The notes under the pieces were generated by a model, which was not told the origin of the DNA, ran no database searches, and was given only the letters and a program-made list of their open reading frames with translations. Made by a program: the position numbers and the translations under genes. This document shows positions 1,129-42,453 of a stretch of 64,000 nucleotides of DNA, piece by piece. This DNA is from a virus. Lineage: Duplodnaviria; Heunggongvirae; Uroviricota; Caudoviricetes. Numbering within the stretch: the stretch's first letter is position 1; every line of letters starts with the position of its first letter. The stretch lies in the IMG/VR virus record IMGVR_UViG_2526164631_000023, one strand, 5' to 3'.

Positions 1129-1413
1129 TTATTTTGCTTCCTCAGACTCCGCTAACATGAGGATTGCATGCCGAATCAAGTTCAATTTGCTGCGGTTCAG
1201 TTTTTTGCTTAAATCATCGAGTACGCCGTACTCATATTCATTAAAGCTCACGCGTATGGATTTAAAGTCACGCGGCGCATCTTTATCTGGAGTTTGAGTT
1301 GCAGCCTCAACGCCCGGCACCAAATCGGCTTTAATGGCGAACTCTTCAATGCGGCGCTCTAGTTCAGGGTCTTTTACAGCTTGTGCATTCACTGGCTCAC
1401 GGCGCTTAATCAC
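1129..1413 (-). CDS. Small partition protein, ParG-like ribbon-helix-helix centromere-binding partner of ParA
   Basis: 94 aa, immediately downstream of and overlapping (4 bp) the ParA gene; C-terminal KSIRVSFNEYEYGVLDDLSKKLNRSKLNLIRHAILMLA resembles RHH fold. Confidence 0.55.
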   Translation of the reverse strand: MIKRREPVNAQAVKDPELERRIEEFAIKADLVPGVEAATQTPDKDAPRDFKSIRVSFNEYEYGVLDDLSKKLNRSKLNLIRHAILMLAESEEAK

Positions 1414-2042
1414 GATAACAACTCCTTAATCAACATCTGGATCTCGCCCTTTGCTTTCCCGTTGTCCATTTCAACAACCCCCTTCCCTTCTGCCATGCAG
1501 TCACGATAAATCTTACGGTCACGGACGACAGTTTTCAGGAGTTCAAGTTGCGGGTATTCAGCAAGATATTCCCTTGCCTCATTGGCTTCGTTAACGACCG
1601 GGTTGGATGGTGCCATAGTCAGCATGGCATACGCCTTAAGTTTAGGGTTGAAATCCATCGCCTCAGCTATAACCTCAACAAGGTGCGGTAGAGTATCCAG
1701 ATCCGGCTGGGAAGGACGGAACGGCACCAGAAGCACATCTGCCGCTGTCATGCCTGTACGCATCTCACGACTGTCGCGACCAGCAGTATCGACGACAACG
1801 TACTCGTAACGTTTATCCAGATCGAGCAGCGTCTCACGAATATTATCGAACTTCTGCACGCAGTGAATGACAGGGGCAACCTCACCTGCATTACGGTCTG
1901 ACGCCCATCGAGCTGCCGTTCCCTGCTTATCAGCATCAATCAAGACGACATCTTTGTTTTTTCGGGCCAGCTCGGCACAAATATTGACGCTGGTGGTTGA
2001 CTTGCCACAGCCTCCCTTTTGACTTGCTACCAGGATAATCAT
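1410..2042 (-). CDS. parA: ParA/ParF-family partition ATPase (small type Ib, 210 aa)
   Basis: N-terminal deviant Walker A MIILVASQKGGCGKSTT; size and operon arrangement typical of type Ib partition ATPases. Confidence 0.85.
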   Translation of the reverse strand: MIILVASQKGGCGKSTTSVNICAELARKNKDVVLIDADKQGTAARWASDRNAGEVAPVIHCVQKFDNIRETLLDLDKRYEYVVVDTAGRDSREMRTGMTAADVLLVPFRPSQPDLDTLPHLVEVIAEAMDFNPKLKAYAMLTMAPSNPVVNEANEAREYLAEYPQLELLKTVVRDRKIYRDCMAEGKGVVEMDNGKAKGEIQMLIKELLS

Positions 2043-2331: not shown

Positions 2332-2676
2332 TCAATCAGGTAGAGAGTCAGCCAGATTGCGCGCCGACGCGCTTTTGGCAACAACTTGCTCCTTCACTGG
2401 CTCAATGGAGGCAGGTCGCTCTTCAACCGCAGCAGGTAGTTCCAGGAAGGATGCCAGCATTTTTCGGATCAGCTCCGGGTTATTGTCTTCGGTCAGCAGG
2501 GAAGCCAGTAATCCTGGAAGCCTGCTATCGACTTCTCCCAGCGCAAGCCCTGCCAACAATGCAGTTCTTGCCATATCGCTATGTTTTTTTATCTTCTCGC
2601 TCGCCGCCTTTTCATTGGCATAAGCCTCTGGGCGAAGATAAATCATCACTTTCTTACGTTCCTGAGACATGGACAT
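2332..2676 (-). CDS. parR: ParR/StbB-like centromere-binding adaptor of the ParM system
   Basis: 114 aa directly downstream of parM; segment HSDMARTALLAGLALGEVDSRLPGLLASLLT resembles R1 ParR as remembered. Confidence 0.6.
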   Translation of the reverse strand: MSMSQERKKVMIYLRPEAYANEKAASEKIKKHSDMARTALLAGLALGEVDSRLPGLLASLLTEDNNPELIRKMLASFLELPAAVEERPASIEPVKEQVVAKSASARNLADSLPD

Positions 2677-2682
2677 ACCTCG

Positions 2683-3663
2683 TTAACCGATTGCTTTCAG
2701 GCCATGAACAAGAGCAAGTTGCGGGTCATCCGCCACGAAGAAACGGTCATCACGAATATTAACTTGCTCGCGAATTGCATCTGCCACCAGCGGTGCGCCA
2801 CCACCGATCACCATGACATGCGTATATCCTTTAAAGTCGCCAATCACATCAAGAACGCGGGTACGCAGACGGTCAATGCTTGCGGCAATGGCCTTTTTCA
2901 CATCACCAATCGCTGATGGGTCATTGATATTGTCGTTCAGATAATCTTCATCGTGGCGGTTAATAATGAGCTGATCAACATTGTAATTTGACGTTTCGGT
3001 ATTGGCTCTGGCAAGTGCTTGCCTTACTTCCCTGGTAACCAGAGAGACGCCAAGATTCGAATCGCCAAAAACACGGGAAACTGCCGTCATTTGCCCGGCG
3101 ACCATTGAAACATCAAGGGTAGTTCCACCCAAATCGACGATAAGAACAGAATGGGCAGGGTTCAGATTGTCGCACAGGCCAATTCCTGCCGGAATAGACT
3201 CCGGGCGTACCGTAACTTTCTTAATCGTGAACACATTGCCTTTATTCAGCGTGACGGGGCGCATAAGGCTGGCTTTCTTGCGCTCGATGTTATCGAGATT
3301 GTATTGCGCGTCGTCGTCGTAAAACTCCGCCAGAGGCAGCGTGACCACAATTTCTACTTCCTGCGGCTCAATGCCACTTGTCAGCAGGGCATGGTGAACA
3401 GCCAGGACGTTAAGCGGGCTGTATTGCCATTCCACGTTATTCGTCGGCAGAACATCTGGCGAGATCAAATCATACGAATACTTTTCGTCGTCAATGACAT
3501 AGTTAAACGGCTTGCCAGCACAAAATGTTGCTGACCATCCGCGCTTAAAGCTGTTAGGGCTGATGTGAGTGCGAGTTTCCCCGTCGTGCTCCCACAGCAT
3601 TTTGATATTGGTTGAACCATCATCGATAAAAATGCGCATCTTCTTGCTCCACTTCTGAGACAC
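2683..3663 (-). CDS. parM: ParM/StbA actin-like plasmid segregation ATPase (type II partition)
   Basis: MRIFIDDGSTNIK..HISPNSFKR..WQYS..NVLAVHHALLTSG..ESIPAG..DLGGTTLD..YGDSNLGVSLVT..THVMVIGGGA: actin-fold phosphate and adenosine motifs closely matching R1 ParM as remembered. Confidence 0.85.
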   Translation of the reverse strand: MSQKWSKKMRIFIDDGSTNIKMLWEHDGETRTHISPNSFKRGWSATFCAGKPFNYVIDDEKYSYDLISPDVLPTNNVEWQYSPLNVLAVHHALLTSGIEPQEVEIVVTLPLAEFYDDDAQYNLDNIERKKASLMRPVTLNKGNVFTIKKVTVRPESIPAGIGLCDNLNPAHSVLIVDLGGTTLDVSMVAGQMTAVSRVFGDSNLGVSLVTREVRQALARANTETSNYNVDQLIINRHDEDYLNDNINDPSAIGDVKKAIAASIDRLRTRVLDVIGDFKGYTHVMVIGGGAPLVADAIREQVNIRDDRFFVADDPQLALVHGLKAIG

Positions 3664-3825
3664 ATTTGAGAATCAAAATGCAATTTTAAAAGAGAAGCAC
3701 CCAAAAATCCACACCAAAAGAGATAAAAAAGAGTGATTATTGAGTTCATTTTGAGAATATCTTAATCACCCAATGAATGATGGTCTGACAGTGAGATTTA
3801 TTTGAGAATGAATTGAGAATACAAA
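3664..3825. repeat. parC-like centromere: iterated TTGAGAAT repeats upstream of parM
   Basis: TTGAGAAT at 3666, 3751, 3802 and 3813 plus a degenerate copy near 3740, in AT-rich DNA immediately upstream of parM. Confidence 0.45.
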
Positions 3826-3905
3826 AATATTCCGAAATTTAACTCTCAGTTTGAATGACGAAATAACAAAGTGATGACAATAGGAGGATAACCAGGAGGT
3901 GAAGA

Positions 3906-4190
3906 ATGAGCGCAATAGCCACCAGCGACACCCTTTGTTCTGGTCACGGAGGATTTCCGCCGCGACTGGTAGCTGAAACTGTTCCCTGGTTCACCGTTAA
4001 CGGTAAGCCAATTGTTGTAGATGGTGCCATGTTTCCCAGTCACACTGACGGTAACAGTGCACATCCAGGGGCAGCTGTATCGACGCGAGTATGGTTTTCG
4101 ATAGGTGGAAAGGGAGTTGTCTGTGTAGGCGATCCGCTTTCTTGTGGTTCTGTTATCGCCAACGGCGAGGATATTTTTCAGGTTGCATAA
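3906..4190 (+). CDS. PAAR-like domain protein (spike-tip type)
   Basis: 94 aa with CSGHGG, VNGKPIVVDG, IGGKGVVCVGDPLSCGS repeats typical of PAAR domains; good SD aggagg upstream. Confidence 0.5.
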   Translation: MSAIATSDTLCSGHGGFPPRLVAETVPWFTVNGKPIVVDGAMFPSHTDGNSAHPGAAVSTRVWFSIGGKGVVCVGDPLSCGSVIANGEDIFQVA

Positions 4191-4993
4191 TGCTTGATTC
4201 AATAGGTGAAGTTAAAGCCTTCAAAATTCTGTCAGATGCCGGTATCTCTACACCAGAATCTATAACCATAAGCCGGGCAGCGTCTGTAAAAGCCTCATCA
4301 CTCGCCAGCGCCATACAGGGAATAGTTCACGCCGATAAAACCTATCCTGATTCTGTTTCGGCCTGGACTACTCAATTGCTTGGCTTTTCTGAACAGCTAA
4401 ATGAGGCCAGCAAAGCGTCTTCATTACTGGCTGATTCTCTTTCCCCATACACCAAGCCATCAGAGCTGTTACAGATGAAGATTGGCTGGGAATGCTACGT
4501 AAAAGGTAACGAGCTGACCCCCATACCTGCTTTCGCCCTTGTTGAGGGGATGGGGAATGTTTCCATTCCGCAATCTCTAACGGACGCATTGACGGCGCTA
4601 AAACTTGATGCTCTGAAAACCGCCATGAACGCCATTAACGCAAAAATAGAAGCTGCTGGAAGTGCTGGTGGTGATAGCAATGGTGGACAGGGTGGTGCTG
4701 GGGGCGCTCAGGCTCCAGTCATTACTCAGGATGAAATTGAAGCTTTACGGGAAGCAGTGACAGCCGCCGAAGTTTTACTCTCCGAAATTAACTCAGCAAG
4801 TGAGAGTGTCGTAGCCCTTACAGGTCGCATTAAAACGTCAACCACTCAGGCAACCAAAGGTTTAGAGAACGCTGTCGCCATCACGTTAACTGGTTCTCTA
4901 CTGGATGATGCAGTAATGAGTCCGGCAATCAGTTTAATCATGCCACAAGGCGTTATCGATGCGCTCCAAAAGAACACCAAAAAGGAACCATAG
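4190..4993 (+). CDS. Hypothetical protein with Gly-rich linker, translationally coupled to the PAAR gene
   Basis: ATG overlaps the PAAR stop (TAATG at 4188-4192); 267 aa; GSAGGDSNGGQGGAGGAQAP linker; the track start at 4091 is an upstream alternative. Confidence 0.45.
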   Translation: MLDSIGEVKAFKILSDAGISTPESITISRAASVKASSLASAIQGIVHADKTYPDSVSAWTTQLLGFSEQLNEASKASSLLADSLSPYTKPSELLQMKIGWECYVKGNELTPIPAFALVEGMGNVSIPQSLTDALTALKLDALKTAMNAINAKIEAAGSAGGDSNGGQGGAGGAQAPVITQDEIEALREAVTAAEVLLSEINSASESVVALTGRIKTSTTQATKGLENAVAITLTGSLLDDAVMSPAISLIMPQGVIDALQKNTKKEP

Positions 4994-5018
4994 CAACACC
5001 ACTTAGGAACACAAAAGG

Positions 5019-5522
5019 ATGCGAATTGGTACATGTTTAACACCAAAAATGAACCTGGAGAGGATGGTTTTGAAAAAGATAATTTTGATTGTAATTGCGC
5101 TTTTAGCCATTTCTGGAATTTACCGAACAACGACGGCAGTTATCGAACACATCAGGTATGTCCGATCGCTTGAAGACTCAAAATCACAACTGGAAAGCAC
5201 GAACAACACGCTTTCTACCGCATTACAGTTAAGTGAGAACGCTCGCTCAGCCATGCTGACCGAAAACGAAAGAATTAAAGCACTGGAAAAGGAGTACCAG
5301 CGCAAAACAGCAGAACTGAATGCCAACCTAATCAAACAACGAGAGGAAAGCCAGAATGAAATCACTCGCCTTGAAAATGCGTTGCGCCGTGCTGGGATTA
5401 ACGATGTGCGTGTGCCTGATGACGTTATCAGGATGCAGCGGGAACGGGCAAAAGCCATCAACCAGCGTGCCAGTGAAAATTACCGTAGAAGCCACCAGCA
5501 AGCCGCAGGCAAATCTGATTGA
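5019..5522 (+). CDS. i-spanin (Rz-like): N-terminal membrane anchor plus periplasmic coiled coil
   Basis: Hydrophobic KKIILIVIALLAISGIY followed by charged heptad-rich region; true start may be an internal ATG (5049 or 5064). Confidence 0.5.
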   Translation: MRIGTCLTPKMNLERMVLKKIILIVIALLAISGIYRTTTAVIEHIRYVRSLEDSKSQLESTNNTLSTALQLSENARSAMLTENERIKALEKEYQRKTAELNANLIKQREESQNEITRLENALRRAGINDVRVPDDVIRMQRERAKAINQRASENYRRSHQQAAGKSD

Positions 5523-5688
5523 TTACTCCCCTTGTTTAGTGCCAGAAGACACGCCAGTGCTGTTAAACAAGTATCCGACATACGCTGAACAGTTATTCAG
5601 CACGATCGACGAATGCAACCAACGAAACGCACTGAATAACCAAAGAAACAGGGAGATTTGGGAAGGGAAGGGGGATCAAGGCTCCTGA
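5356..5688 (+). CDS. o-spanin (Rz1-like) outer-membrane lipoprotein, out of frame within and beyond the i-spanin 3' end
   Basis: Signal peptide with lipobox LMTLSGC; SD gaggaaag 8 nt upstream of ATG; overlaps 5356-5522 of the i-spanin gene in another frame. Confidence 0.5.
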   Translation: MKSLALKMRCAVLGLTMCVCLMTLSGCSGNGQKPSTSVPVKITVEATSKPQANLIDYSPCLVPEDTPVLLNKYPTYAEQLFSTIDECNQRNALNNQRNREIWEGKGDQGS

Positions 5689-6134
5689 AGCCAGATGTCC
5701 TGGCTGTCAGCTTCTTCGAAACCGTGACAGACGTTAAAGTCACTCAAACGATACTGACGCTGACGGCCCCTATTTCGCTCATGCCAATGCATATATCCAC
5801 CAGCAAATGCCAGCGGACAATCGCTATAGTCTATGTAACCAATACCATTCCCCAAACGTGCTTCGCGCGCACCAGCTTTCCAGGACAGTAGAAAAGAGTC
5901 ACGATCCGCCAGCATAACAACAAAATCGTCCGGATCTCCGATACAGTGAAGAATACCTGCCTTACATAACTGCTTGAGCGCTTTTGACTGGCTCAGGATG
6001 TCTTCTCCGTAATACTGAAAACAATCATCAACAACAGCGGGATAGCCTGTCGGGGGATTCAGGCTGGTTGGTATAGCTGACGCGATCGCCAGCATTAAGC
6101 GATATTGTGTTTTTGATGGGTTGACGTGACTCAT
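5676..6134 (-). CDS. Hypothetical protein (152 aa, Cys/His-rich)
   Basis: ORF only; second gene of a leftward two-gene unit downstream of operator-like site at 6557. Confidence 0.3.
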   Translation of the reverse strand: MSHVNPSKTQYRLMLAIASAIPTSLNPPTGYPAVVDDCFQYYGEDILSQSKALKQLCKAGILHCIGDPDDFVVMLADRDSFLLSWKAGAREARLGNGIGYIDYSDCPLAFAGGYMHWHERNRGRQRQYRLSDFNVCHGFEEADSQDIWLQEP

Positions 6135-6150
6135 TTTGTCCCTTGTTTAC

Positions 6151-6543
6151 TCATTGTCGCCATGCATTTTTTAACTCAGGAATATCTGCCATTTCAATTA
6201 ACTTGCGAAGTCCAGCACTGACTTTCCCATTGCCAACCATAGCAAGCCAATCTCTTACAGCTTTCGGCATGTAGAGCGTTGCAGTTACCGGCTCTTCAAC
6301 CCTGGCAGGACATCCGCATACAGGCCATTTAATTGATTCCATAACTTCGGATGCCGGGGTGAGGGCGGGGACATTGAGTATATCTCTACCAGAAAACTGG
6401 ATAACGATCCGTTCAGCGAGCGAGAGTATCTCACTTTCGGCAAGAATTGATGCCAACTGCGCCTCAACAAGAAAGCGACTTGTTGTGTTCAGAGAGTGGC
6501 TCTTAGCGCCATTTTTATACGAAACAAAGATTCGATACGCCAT
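6151..6543 (-). CDS. Hypothetical protein (130 aa)
   Basis: ORF only; first gene of the leftward unit; operator-like motif just upstream of its start. Confidence 0.3.
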   Translation of the reverse strand: MAYRIFVSYKNGAKSHSLNTTSRFLVEAQLASILAESEILSLAERIVIQFSGRDILNVPALTPASEVMESIKWPVCGCPARVEEPVTATLYMPKAVRDWLAMVGNGKVSAGLRKLIEMADIPELKNAWRQ

Positions 6544-6556
6544 AACTCTAATGATT

Positions 6557-6575
6557 TGTGTTAGAAAACTAAAAT
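6557..6575 (+). promoter_or_regulatory. Operator-like motif copy a (TGTGTTAGAAAACTAAAAT)
   Basis: Member of a dispersed family of asymmetric ~19-bp sites, consensus tGTGTTAGAAA(a/t)(c/t)TAA(a/t)T. Confidence 0.45.
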
Positions 6576-6701
6576 TAAATCACATAACAACATGAGTGTT
6601 AATATATTTTATTTTACTAAACCTATTGACTAAATCACAAAGTAGGTATTGTTAGCCCGTCAAAAGAACCTTCACGCCGCGCCCGAATTTAGGGCTTAAC
6701 C

Positions 6702-8399
6702 GTGAATAAAAACATTCAGCCAGCTCGTGATCGCGAGCGCGAGATTATGAATCGGGCGGCAAGCGTCATGGCTATGACCGTCGATCCGACCACCGATGCA
6801 GCAGGCAACATGATTGCTGACCAGGCAGTAATGATGGAAAACCTGGATAAAGCAATCCAGAAAGTGCCTATGTTTGAAGGCGTAAATCCAGAGGTCGCTC
6901 GTCAGATCACTGGTGGGTGGGCTATGTCTCTGCATGAGTATAAACGTCAACATGGTCATTACCCGGCAAGTGACATCCTGGCGAACGCACACATGGCTCT
7001 TGAGCGCCTGATGACTGAATGTGCCAGTGATACCCATGAAGGCACGGGTAAGGCAATGTTTGAGTCTGTCGCGCAATCAATGCGTAGCTCTGACGGCGTA
7101 ATGAAAGTTGCTCAATATGCTGCTCTAATTCTGCCTGCCTCTCTGGGCGCTGCTACCAGTGATGCCTGTACTTTTGTTCCTTGTGATCGTGACGAGTCAA
7201 ATATTTATGAACTGGTCAACGTAGCAGGCACAAAATTCGGCACCTTCAACCAAGGTGACGAACTGAATATGCAGTCAGCTGGTGTTTATTCTCAAATGAA
7301 GCGCCTGTATGCCCTTTCCACTAAAGGGGATGGCAGCACCAAAACCTTCCAGTTCAACATCCAAAATTTTGAGGGACAATCCTGCCCGCTTCGCGCTGGT
7401 TATAACAAACTGCTGATCAACCGCAAACCGTCCAAAGTTGACGACGGCGATGGCAACCTTTATTTCAATGCTAAAGACAGCAAAGGTAATGCTTTCTCAG
7501 CGACTGCCAAAGTTGCCTATGACACTGGTGTCATTGACATTACATTTACCCAGGCTCCGCCAGAAGGTACTGAAATTGCTGTTCAGGTCGAAATTAACAT
7601 CGAGCGCAATCCAAGCCTGATTCCGGTGATCAACCAGGCTATGCGTAAGTACGAAGTTCGTCCGTCCCAGTACGTACTTGCTTCCGAACACACGGTAATG
7701 TCCGCATCCGATTTAAGCCGTGAGCACGGCCTTGAATTAGCGGCACTTCAGTTCTCCGCGATGCGCAACTGGATCTCCCATGAAACCGACATCATGCGTC
7801 TGCGCACCCTGGTATTCCATACCGTTTATGGTCGTGAATTTGATGTGGCTCTGCCGGAAGCTCAAAACTATGAGTCCTGGGTCGGTCTCCTGCGTCACGT
7901 AGTAAACGCTCTGTCTCAAGAAATGGCAAATCGTACCCTGACAACGGGTATTCGTGGCGGCTTTGCTGGTAGTGACGCCGCGAACTTCCTGCGCTCTCTG
8001 CCTCCACAGCACTTCCAGATCGCACCAGGTTACGTTCAGTCGCCGTATGTACAGTACATCGGCACCCTGTTTGGCACGATTCGTATTTACGAAGTGCCGC
8101 AACCTGTCTGTGAGCAATTCCAGGCACAGGGATATGACTTCGGGCTGGATGACATCTTCTTCTATGGGCGTGGCGAAGGCATCGGTAAAGCCGGTCTGAT
8201 TGCTGGTGATGCAGTCCCAGCAATCCCTTACGTTCACGAAACCAATCCGTCTCTCGTTAACCGTACCACTCTCTGGGGCAGTGCCATCAACGAAGTACAT
8301 CCTCGCAACGGTGAAAACTACTTCACCCGCCTGCGTCTGACTCGTGCCAAAGAAGGTGCTATCGACATGCTGACAGGCAAGGTTAACGAAAAAAAGTGA
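6702..8399 (+). CDS. Virion structural protein, candidate major head protein (565 aa)
   Basis: Large ORF opening the structural block; size close to the P1 major head protein as remembered; assignment by size and context only. Confidence 0.35.
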   Translation: MNKNIQPARDREREIMNRAASVMAMTVDPTTDAAGNMIADQAVMMENLDKAIQKVPMFEGVNPEVARQITGGWAMSLHEYKRQHGHYPASDILANAHMALERLMTECASDTHEGTGKAMFESVAQSMRSSDGVMKVAQYAALILPASLGAATSDACTFVPCDRDESNIYELVNVAGTKFGTFNQGDELNMQSAGVYSQMKRLYALSTKGDGSTKTFQFNIQNFEGQSCPLRAGYNKLLINRKPSKVDDGDGNLYFNAKDSKGNAFSATAKVAYDTGVIDITFTQAPPEGTEIAVQVEINIERNPSLIPVINQAMRKYEVRPSQYVLASEHTVMSASDLSREHGLELAALQFSAMRNWISHETDIMRLRTLVFHTVYGREFDVALPEAQNYESWVGLLRHVVNALSQEMANRTLTTGIRGGFAGSDAANFLRSLPPQHFQIAPGYVQSPYVQYIGTLFGTIRIYEVPQPVCEQFQAQGYDFGLDDIFFYGRGEGIGKAGLIAGDAVPAIPYVHETNPSLVNRTTLWGSAINEVHPRNGENYFTRLRLTRAKEGAIDMLTGKVNEKK

Positions 8400-19954: not shown

Positions 19955-20329
19955 ATGCTTTACGAAATAGACGCAAGACTTCAAACGAATGAGAGCGGTG
20001 TCATTATTGCAGAAGGAAGTACCGCAGCATGGATGGCCCGACTTGAGGAGTGGCTACGAACCCCTGAAGGGAGTGTTTATGGTTTACCCTCTTGGGGGAG
20101 TCCAATGGAAGAATTTAAGCATGAACCATTCGGCTCTGAAACTTCGCACATAGTTGAAGTGGCTATTGAAGGGAGAATGATGAAAAAACTACGACAAGAC
20201 TTGCCAGGTTTGGATGTGCAGGGGATTCGTTGCACATCAATTTCTGAAGATTCTTTATTAATTAGTTTTTATGCGAAAGGTGGGAGCATGGATATTGTTA
20301 TGCAGAAATCAAGTGGGGTGGGCGCGTGA
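19955..20329 (+). CDS. Small baseplate protein (gpW/gp25-like size)
   Basis: 124 aa, SD gagga; overlaps next gene by 4 bp. Confidence 0.3.
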   Translation: MLYEIDARLQTNESGVIIAEGSTAAWMARLEEWLRTPEGSVYGLPSWGSPMEEFKHEPFGSETSHIVEVAIEGRMMKKLRQDLPGLDVQGIRCTSISEDSLLISFYAKGGSMDIVMQKSSGVGA

Positions 20330-21756
20330 CGATTACAGAATTACTGGACAAATTTAACGCCAAGTTAAATGAAAACACATGGTGGTCACGATTTGTAAAT
20401 AGTCAGTTTGTGCAGATGCACGCTATATTCGGATCGCAGCTTATTTATATTGCCCGTACATTTGCAAGCCGCGGCCTCACTGAGGGACTTATTTCAACGG
20501 CAACGCGTCGCTCAAGTATTTTAGCGGTTGCTGAAGACCGTAGCTACGTAGGGCGATTTGTTAGTGCTTCATACGGAACAACGTCTATAACCAATAAAAC
20601 TGATCGGGATATTACGTTACCAGCCGGGGCTGAATTGCTTGCCAATGACCAAACACCTTTGGCAATTATTAACAGTGTTGTAATTCCTGCTGGAGGAACT
20701 GTTTCTGGCGTAGAAACTAAACAGCATGAAGCTGTTAGCATTACATTTGATATTGAGAAGGAAACTTTATTTCTGACATTGTTGCTTTCCAGAGAGTTAA
20801 CAAAAGAAGTCTCTAGCCTGGATGTTTATGTTATTACAGATGGAGTAGAAGAAAAATGGACATATAACCCATTATTTAGAATGTCCAGAGACAAGAGTAA
20901 GCACTATTCATTGGCATATAAACCTACAGAACAACTTGGAGTCAAGTTTGGTGATGGTTCTATGGGTATGATGCCTCCAGCAGGCTGTCAGGTTCGAATC
21001 GATGTTATGGCTAGCCTTGGCGACTATACTTTGGCTGAAGGACAAAAGTTAGAACCGGCTGGAAATATCGCTCAATATGTGGAGTCACTAGAGTTTAAAA
21101 CTGATTCGATCATTACCGGTGGTAGTGGTATGGAAACTACAGAAGAAACTCGAAATCGTGCTCAGTATTATGTTGCATACGATGAACAAGTGGTATGGGG
21201 CGGTGATTATCGCCAATTCATTCAGAATGTTGTTCATGGAACTTCATGGTTGAACGTTTGGGGCGAAGCGTTGCAAGAGAAAATAACTGGGTTTGACGTT
21301 CGAAACATAAACAAGATTTTCTTTTGCGGACATAAGCCAGGTGTAAGCCAGGCTCAGCTAAAATCAGAAATACTGAAAGCTCTAGAGAATGTTCCAAATG
21401 AGTTGAACAAGCGGTTTGAGTATGTAGATACAAATGAACAACCATTTACTATAAAATTTACAGGTATTGCACGTAAAAATGTTCTGATAGACGACGCTCA
21501 AAATGCTATTAAAGCAGCGTTGGAAGATAATTTTGGTCGTGATTCGTCATCATTCAGTTTATTACTACAGAGTGATGATGATTCTCAGCAATGTTATGCA
21601 CAGGTAAAAGTTAAAGATATTTGGCGAGTAATAGAGTCGCTGGATATGTTTCTCTCTTATGACATAACAATACAAAATATGAAAGATGCAGTTTACTTTA
21701 ATGACTTCATTTATCTTGACGTGAAATCTTCAACGTTCAGCATTTCTTACCCGTAA
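20326..21756 (+). CDS. Candidate baseplate wedge protein (476 aa)
   Basis: Position and size within baseplate operon. Confidence 0.3.
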   Translation: MTITELLDKFNAKLNENTWWSRFVNSQFVQMHAIFGSQLIYIARTFASRGLTEGLISTATRRSSILAVAEDRSYVGRFVSASYGTTSITNKTDRDITLPAGAELLANDQTPLAIINSVVIPAGGTVSGVETKQHEAVSITFDIEKETLFLTLLLSRELTKEVSSLDVYVITDGVEEKWTYNPLFRMSRDKSKHYSLAYKPTEQLGVKFGDGSMGMMPPAGCQVRIDVMASLGDYTLAEGQKLEPAGNIAQYVESLEFKTDSIITGGSGMETTEETRNRAQYYVAYDEQVVWGGDYRQFIQNVVHGTSWLNVWGEALQEKITGFDVRNINKIFFCGHKPGVSQAQLKSEILKALENVPNELNKRFEYVDTNEQPFTIKFTGIARKNVLIDDAQNAIKAALEDNFGRDSSSFSLLLQSDDDSQQCYAQVKVKDIWRVIESLDMFLSYDITIQNMKDAVYFNDFIYLDVKSSTFSISYP

Positions 21757-22612: not shown

Positions 22613-22706
22613 TAATTCTTCCCCCAAATGCGGGGGAAGAACAACGGAAATCACAAACTGAGCATACTCTCCTTTGGTTCATTGCTTATGAAGGGGCTAT
22701 GTTCGT

Positions 22707-31125: not shown

Positions 31126-31229
31126 ATGTCCCCCTTGTATGTTAAGGAGGGAGATTTTAGAAGATGTCCTGTAAGGAAATAACAAACTGACTAAGTTAGT
31201 GGCGCATTAGATGTTATTTCTGGAGGGGT

Positions 31230-36395: not shown

Positions 36396-36459
36396 ACCAA
36401 CCGCTGAAATCACATACTGATTATGCTGCCGCAAAACTGGAAACAATTTGCGGTGATTC

Positions 36460-42378: not shown

Positions 42379-42453
42379 ATTTTTCTCCCGGTCATGGGTT
42401 AATAAGTAGGCAAACTATGGGGAGTATGTGATTTTGACGGTAGTATCGTCCCC

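Follow-up and report, generated by a model that had tools for sequence, protein, structure and literature searches.

A PAAR-like gene and the gene for a 267-residue protein that follows it form a real pair in the 64,000-nt stretch of viral DNA analyzed here (IMG/VR record IMGVR_UViG_2526164631_000023; hereafter, the window), and this pair is of a kind described in January 2026—UpfC and UpfB of phage P1—rather than a new toxin system. We put at roughly three in four the probability that the two genes are the D6-lineage orthologues of P1 upfC and upfB and that their products belong to the cell-puncturing device of the tail. The window itself is an E. coli D6-like phage-plasmid of the P1 family: over positions 3700–5200, identity is 97.5% with Escherichia phage D6 and reaches 100% with an E. 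coli plasmid, this stretch occurs in 119 E. coli, Salmonella and Shigella plasmids, and the window is collinear with D6 over its first 24.5 kb. In the D6 record, the two genes are labelled 'similar to P1 upfC' (orf57) and 'similar to P1 upfB' (orf56). Under the assignment proposed here, two 'hypothetical' genes on more than 100 phage-plasmids of E. coli, Salmonella and Shigella would become genes for virion spike-tip components, and filing them under the spike tip, not as a toxin module, matters for the cargo annotation of these resistance-carrying elements. Moreover, the comparative data provide independent genomic support for the P1 assignment, which was based on medium-resolution density. 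What is new here is the strict coupling of PAAR and UpfB genes, the conservation of an operon of four genes, the higher rate at which the tripod gene diverges and a candidate late-promoter motif. The features on which the analysis draws are collected in Table 1.

Table 1. Features of the spike-tip locus and its surroundings, in window coordinates.
Feature	Position	Strand	Remarks
PAAR-type spike tip protein, 94 aa	3906–4190	+	Probable P1 UpfC orthologue; T4 gp5.4 analogue
Shine-Dalgarno sequence AGGAGG	3894–3899	+	6 nt ahead of the PAAR ATG; read from the sequence
UpfB-family protein, 267 aa, all-alpha	4190–4993	+	Presumed spike-tip 'tripod' subunit
Codons of Gly-rich disordered linker, residues ~157–175 (GSAGGDSNGGQGGAGGAQA)	4658–4714	+	From pLDDT and family alignment
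Late-promoter-like motif AAATAACAAAGTG-ATG-ACAAT	3861–3881	+	Made up of a conserved box and a -10-like ANNNT; 25 nt ahead of the PAAR start
Motif site upstream of capsid gene	6632–6652	+	
Motif site upstream of R/S tail-fibre genes	22648–22668	+	
Motif site upstream of holin-like/LydB-like pair	31177–31197	+	
Motif site upstream of portal gene	36407–36427	+	
Motif site upstream of endolysin gene	42414–42434	-	
Small ParA-like protein	1410–2042	-	
StbB-like protein	2332–2676	-	
ParM	2683–3663	-	
Four TGAG-N5-6-TTGAGAAT repeats	3656–3823		Divergent parM/PAAR intergenic region; copies at 3656, 3741, 3792 and 3803 (families D1/D2)
Rz-like i-spanin	5070–5522	+	N-terminal TM segment and coiled coil; PHROG 214, E 3.9e-15; P1 PpfA equivalent
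o-spanin lipoprotein ORF, overlapping the i-spanin	5356–5688	+	LSGC lipobox with Cys27 (numbered from the first ATG); P1 Mlp equivalent

A reading of the letters made without database searches (the sequence-only reading) had proposed a PAAR-like gene at the head of the pair, and the searches bear this out. The Pfam PAAR_motif model scored marginally below its cut-off on the 94-residue ORF (26.4 bits against 27; E 8.2e-6), PHROG 281 ('PAAR motif') matched the protein with an E of 1.3e-28, and the best match among PDB sequences in a phmmer search was the solved UpfC of P1 (9vyi_A, E 1.8e-35), with which the protein shares 56% identity over 94 of 94 residues. T4-type gp5.4 spike tips, 9f4b and 5iv5 among them, were also recovered by phmmer at E 5e-7 to 4e-5 (1.8e-5 for 5iv5, T4 gp5.4 itself). 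The NCBIfam equivalog T6SS_PAAR_dom, on the other hand, reached 33.7 bits where 124 are required, and a score this far under the cut-off marks the 94-residue protein as a phage spike tip and not as a T6SS PAAR. Four residues (H14, H46, H53 and C80) are identical to those aligned with them in both P1 UpfC and T4 gp5.4 and are invariant across 14 lineages of the family; they occupy what we take to be the positions of the apical His3-Cys metal site of PAAR structures, metal binding being a prediction. Additionally, purifying selection acts on both genes: dN/dS is ~0.05 for the PAAR gene and 0.15–0.20 for its neighbour, and ratios as low as these indicate that both ORFs are real genes.

For the second gene of the pair, a longer version beginning at an ATG at 4091 (300 residues, same frame) was considered and rejected, because all homologues begin at MLD. 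The 267-residue protein aligned over its full length with P1 UpfB in a BLASTP comparison (27% identity over 262 residues, E 3e-22) and matched PHROG 1559 ('unknown function', E 5e-111), the one family found for it across Pfam, NCBIfam, PADLOC and PHROGs; a search of the PDB sequences gave chance matches to Gly-rich linkers and nothing else. When a D6-type profile was run exhaustively against 1.84 billion representatives, just 72 clusters at 50% identity were retrieved, nearly all of them 245–265 residues long and aligned end to end, with the P1-type UpfB clusters appearing at E 1e-27 to 1e-35—a result that describes UpfB as a small, single-domain family. Among the sampled members, the family is confined to contigs of ~80–93 kb from Enterobacterales; one distant member, P0092, had no match among deposited phages.

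Structure prediction with AF2, based on a 35-sequence alignment, gave a confident all-alpha model of ten helices (pLDDT 89, pTM 0.81), the longest of which extends over 58 residues (180–237), and the predicted fold resembles generic helical bundles only. The Gly-rich flexible linker that the sequence-only reading had pointed out reappears in this model, where it joins the N-terminal helical part to the long helix and where the pLDDT drops below 50 at residues 160–172; gaps and changes of composition are more frequent here than anywhere else in the family alignment, and the length of the segment differs among members. Residues 1–22, 90–118 and 218–259, by contrast, form conserved blocks. Taken together, the confident all-alpha model and the linker are consistent with the alpha-helical tripod of P1. 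Foldseek searches against BFVD returned weak matches (E 1.5e-3 to 4e-2; TM 0.4–0.6) to DUF7217 or uncharacterised proteins of ~190–475 residues from four phages, i.e., Pectobacterium phage Wc4, Serratia phage 3M, Escherichia phage FEC14 and Salmonella phage 38; the DUF7217 proteins, from the Pectobacterium, Serratia and Escherichia phages, gave E 1.5e-3 and TM 0.46–0.58. No member of the UpfB family matched DUF7217 in Pfam, and a literature search on this domain also came back empty.

The experimental counterpart of the pair comes from cryo-EM work on P1 (PLoS Pathog 2026, PMC12810830), in which UpfC caps the gp5 trimer as a monomer and UpfB is assigned to a helical 'tripod' anchored on UpfC—the tripod being an AlphaFold3 model fitted into medium-resolution density, not one built de novo. 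The authors of that study speculate that gp5, UpfC and UpfB constitute a membrane-piercing apparatus (PMC12810830). A later P1 paper counts three alpha-helical UpfB molecules on UpfC, a stoichiometry that differs from the three trimers of the earlier work (PMC12810830). The sequence-only reading had set against its own proposal the plainer view that both proteins are ordinary tip components; the cryo-EM placement (PMC12810830) approaches that view, with the tripod, as a medium-resolution fit, as the part that stops short of it.

Set beside the P1 locus and its PDB entries (UpfC 9vyi, baseplate 9VZK), the window displays the same order and orientation of upfC, upfB, i-spanin and o-spanin genes, the same adjacency of these four genes to plasmid maintenance genes and the capsid gene, and a UpfB of the same length and helix pattern, with a low-complexity linker at the corresponding place. 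The differences lie in the sequence of UpfB (just 27% identity), in the junction of the two genes (eight bases between the upfC stop and the upfB start in P1; a one-base TAATG overlap in the D6 type), in the partition module (P1 ParAB as opposed to ParM/StbB and a small ParA) and in the promoter-like motif of the D6 lineage, which is absent from the P1 locus.

T6SS PAAR proteins often require dedicated chaperones, and the 267-residue protein could likewise be an assembly chaperone or adaptor that helps the PAAR cone fold or load on the spike and is then absent from the mature virion. The stop/start coupling of the two genes suggests a co-translational partnership of this sort; furthermore, an LC-MS/MS analysis of P1 virions, which missed UpfC and gp5, leaves UpfB unmentioned (PMC9024508), and a second P1 baseplate study (preprint) makes no mention of UpfB, which is absent from its model. 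We nevertheless regard such a helper role as quite improbable: the tip density in the P1 cryo-EM map fits UpfB, T4 gp5.4 and other PAAR tips load on their spikes with no UpfB-like gene adjoining, recombinant gp5.4 joins particles in vitro (PMC12407873), and 267 residues with a long helix and a linker would be large for the helper of a 94-residue cone.

The sequence-only reading had described the second gene as coupled to the PAAR gene and overlapping its stop, and this is indeed what the letters say: the ATG shares one base with the TAA stop (gcaTAATGctt). To see how widely this arrangement holds, we can turn to a comparison set of D6, P1 and 37 IMG/VR loci (39 in all, or 40 with a distant P1-like locus, L040). 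A PAAR gene whose product is 52% to 100% identical to that of the window lies directly upstream of the UpfB homologue in each of the 39 loci (39/40 counting L040). The one-base overlap, as TAATG or TGATG, was found in the window and in 37 of 39 further loci, the exceptions being P1, with its eight bases between stop and start, and L037, with a one-base spacer; in the loci compared that have the overlap, AGGT or GAGGT is located within the final PAAR codons. UpfB diverges faster than its partner, as illustrated by paired identities (PAAR/UpfB) of 88/60, 64/45 and 52/28%. T4-like and Chaseviridae phages carry no UpfB-like gene, and their PAAR gene sits inside the baseplate operon instead. In L040 (IMGVR_UViG_2609460227_000001, 2662–6765), ~3 kb separate the PAAR and UpfB genes; the insertion carries a DNA methyltransferase gene with a reading frame that is broken in the contig, and this methyltransferase-like frame ends in a TAATG overlap with the UpfB start. 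The PAAR gene of L040 is split over two frames (a frameshift or a sequencing error), and its capsid gene comes directly after the UpfB homologue, without spanins downstream.

A tight coupling to a PAAR gene, a flexible linker and a rate of non-synonymous evolution 3–4 times that of PAAR are also properties to be expected if the 267-residue protein were a PAAR-borne effector, i.e., a toxic or host-modifying cargo on the tip in the manner of T6SS effectors—the kind of pair, with toxicity on expression, that the sequence-only reading had implied. Two observations from the literature point the same way, namely that the tip assembly of contractile phages enters the periplasm (PMC12407873) and that the later P1 paper calls the function of UpfB unclear. 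The likeness to T6SS extends to a PAAR fold that sharpens a VgrG/gp5-type spike and to a partner gene directly downstream. However, the defining marks of an effector were not found: no toxin, enzyme or T6SS-adaptor domain (DUF4123, DUF1795, DUF2169) was detected in the protein with Pfam, NCBIfam or PADLOC, no immunity-like gene follows it (the next two genes being the spanin pair), the setting is that of a phage late operon, and the protein is homologous to P1 UpfB from end to end. The toxic-pair proposal is not supported by these comparisons, and we consider an effector of this type very improbable.

Lysis genes adjoin the pair on its downstream side, as the sequence-only reading had suggested, in the form of an i-spanin gene and an overlapping ORF with a lipobox (Table 1). 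The Rz-like spanin PHROGs matched downstream of the pair were 214, 89 and 2466; the i-spanin has a TM score of 2.5, and the P1 Mlp ORF carries an LSGC box identical to that of the window. The P1 equivalents are described in PMC9025707, where their spanin function is a prediction. Across the comparison set, a TM-anchored ORF of 149–188 residues is located at -58 to +71 nt after UpfB in 39 of the 40 loci, and in the same 39 a second ORF overlaps it. The LSGC lipobox is present in the second ORF of 31 of the 39 loci, the regular expression being without a match in L025 and L029-L033/L035. The conserved unit consists of tip, tripod, i-spanin and o-spanin, matching upfC, upfB, ppfA and mlp of P1. 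In the D6 annotation, the start of orf54 (73 residues; L001 13771–13992) is set 37 codons after the first ATG; since the signal peptide and the LSGC lipobox are lost with the annotated start, the longer ORF is the plausible gene.

An operon shared with i- and o-spanin genes in 39/40 loci, where stop and start codons often abut, could also mean that the 267-residue protein is a lysis accessory working with the co-transcribed spanins in envelope disruption late in infection, and the promoter-like motif that precedes the operon also precedes the holin and endolysin operons. To this reading we assign hardly any probability. The protein lacks both a signal peptide and a TM segment (its Kyte-Doolittle hydropathy over 19 residues peaks at 1.39) and would therefore remain cytoplasmic, the UpfB gene of the spanin-less L040 is coupled to a PAAR gene and not to spanins, and UpfB is assigned to the virion in P1. 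The interval from the spanins to the capsid gene contains two convergent ORFs on the minus strand (5676–6134 and 6151–6543); they match PHROG 8101 and 7830, both of 'unknown function', and the corresponding position in P1 is held by upfA, repA and parAB.

The promoter-like motif, with the general form AAATMACAWASTG-N3-ANNNT, is conserved ahead of the PAAR gene throughout the D6-like loci L001–L021. The pattern AAATMACAWASTGNNNANNNT has six sites in the window against 0.04 expected—an enrichment that is partly circular, since the pattern was derived from the same sites, so that the actual argument lies in positions and orientations. In this respect, all five further sites are correctly oriented and located just ahead of their operons (Table 1). 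In P1, Lpa-dependent late promoters with a conserved 9-bp inverted repeat drive operons of these kinds. The motif probably represents the late-promoter type of the D6 lineage, and we infer from its placement that the spike-tip operon would be a late operon. A palindrome upstream of the PAAR gene (AACTNNNAGTT) was examined as a promoter element and discarded, as its occurrence is at chance level; sigma-70 and terminator scans were at chance level as well.

On the other side of the pair, the partition genes reported by the sequence-only reading are in place, i.e., those for ParM, an StbB-like protein and a small ParA-like protein, upstream and on the minus strand. The four repeats between parM and the PAAR gene are probably parC-like centromere iterons of ParM/StbB lying outside the spike-tip operon, a function read solely from their position upstream of parM.

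If the two proteins are indeed the D6-lineage counterparts of P1 UpfC and UpfB, their action may be pictured as follows. The 94-residue PAAR protein would fold into a small metal-stabilised cone, one copy of which would cap the blunt end of the trimeric gp5 β-helix spike, while the 267-residue protein, translated from the same late mRNA by stop/start coupling, would bind the cone and form a helical tripod protruding below the baseplate. Upon contraction of the sheath, this tip assembly would be the first part of the virion to be driven into the outer membrane and would continue with the spike into the periplasm, to be shed before the passage of DNA. The assembly would be accessory and dispensable for plaques in the laboratory. 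In P1, deletion of upfC left plaques normal (PMC9024508), and CRISPRi knock-down of upfB or upfC was scored as non-essential, with normal plaques (PMC10695390).

T4 gp5.4 offers an analogy for such a role: it, too, is a small PAAR cone that sits on a gp5 β-helix and has the conserved His/Cys ligands, and, as with P1 UpfC, it is not needed for plaques. It confers a 1.55-fold fitness gain per cycle and is required on hosts with deep-rough LPS (PMC12407873). From this analogy, a conditional, non-essential contribution of the tripod to penetration or fitness is to be expected, and on some envelope or LPS variants, penetration would probably be inefficient without the tip assembly. We likewise infer, by comparison with the characterised phages, that the D6-type proteins would act as the P1 pair does and that the tripod would have a role in penetration. 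The product of a small neighbouring gene in T4, gp5.1, is a possible partner of gp5.4, as modelling has led to the proposal that it binds a face of the cone. The T4 arrangement differs from that of the window in that gene 5.4 stands beside gene 5 in the baseplate operon, without a UpfB homologue.

A more far-reaching version of the penetration role, which we consider unlikely, would make the UpfB family the phage counterpart of PAAR-borne cargo that acts on the envelope after delivery by the spike tip. The linker would release the UpfB helices beyond the outer membrane, where they might sense or bind LPS or an inner-membrane component and open a path for the DNA or, alternatively, counter an envelope-level exclusion system. 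Such a function would explain both the evolution of UpfB, several-fold faster than that of the PAAR cone, and its place in an operon with membrane-fusing spanins.

Returning to the spike-tip assignment, the distance of the pair from other baseplate genes was given as ~15 kb by the sequence-only reading. This estimate holds roughly for the wedge gene (a PHROG baseplate protein) at 20326–21756, but not for the spike and hub: in D6, the homologues of genes 5 and 6 are located ~7–9 kb upstream, beyond the left end of the window, with the P1 gene 5 homologue itself ~7 kb upstream of the PAAR gene. At its left edge (1 to ~850, minus strand), the window begins inside a glutamine-tRNA ligase gene next to the partition genes, which corresponds to orf62 in the D6 annotation (L001 7494–9155) and is borne by the phage-plasmid.
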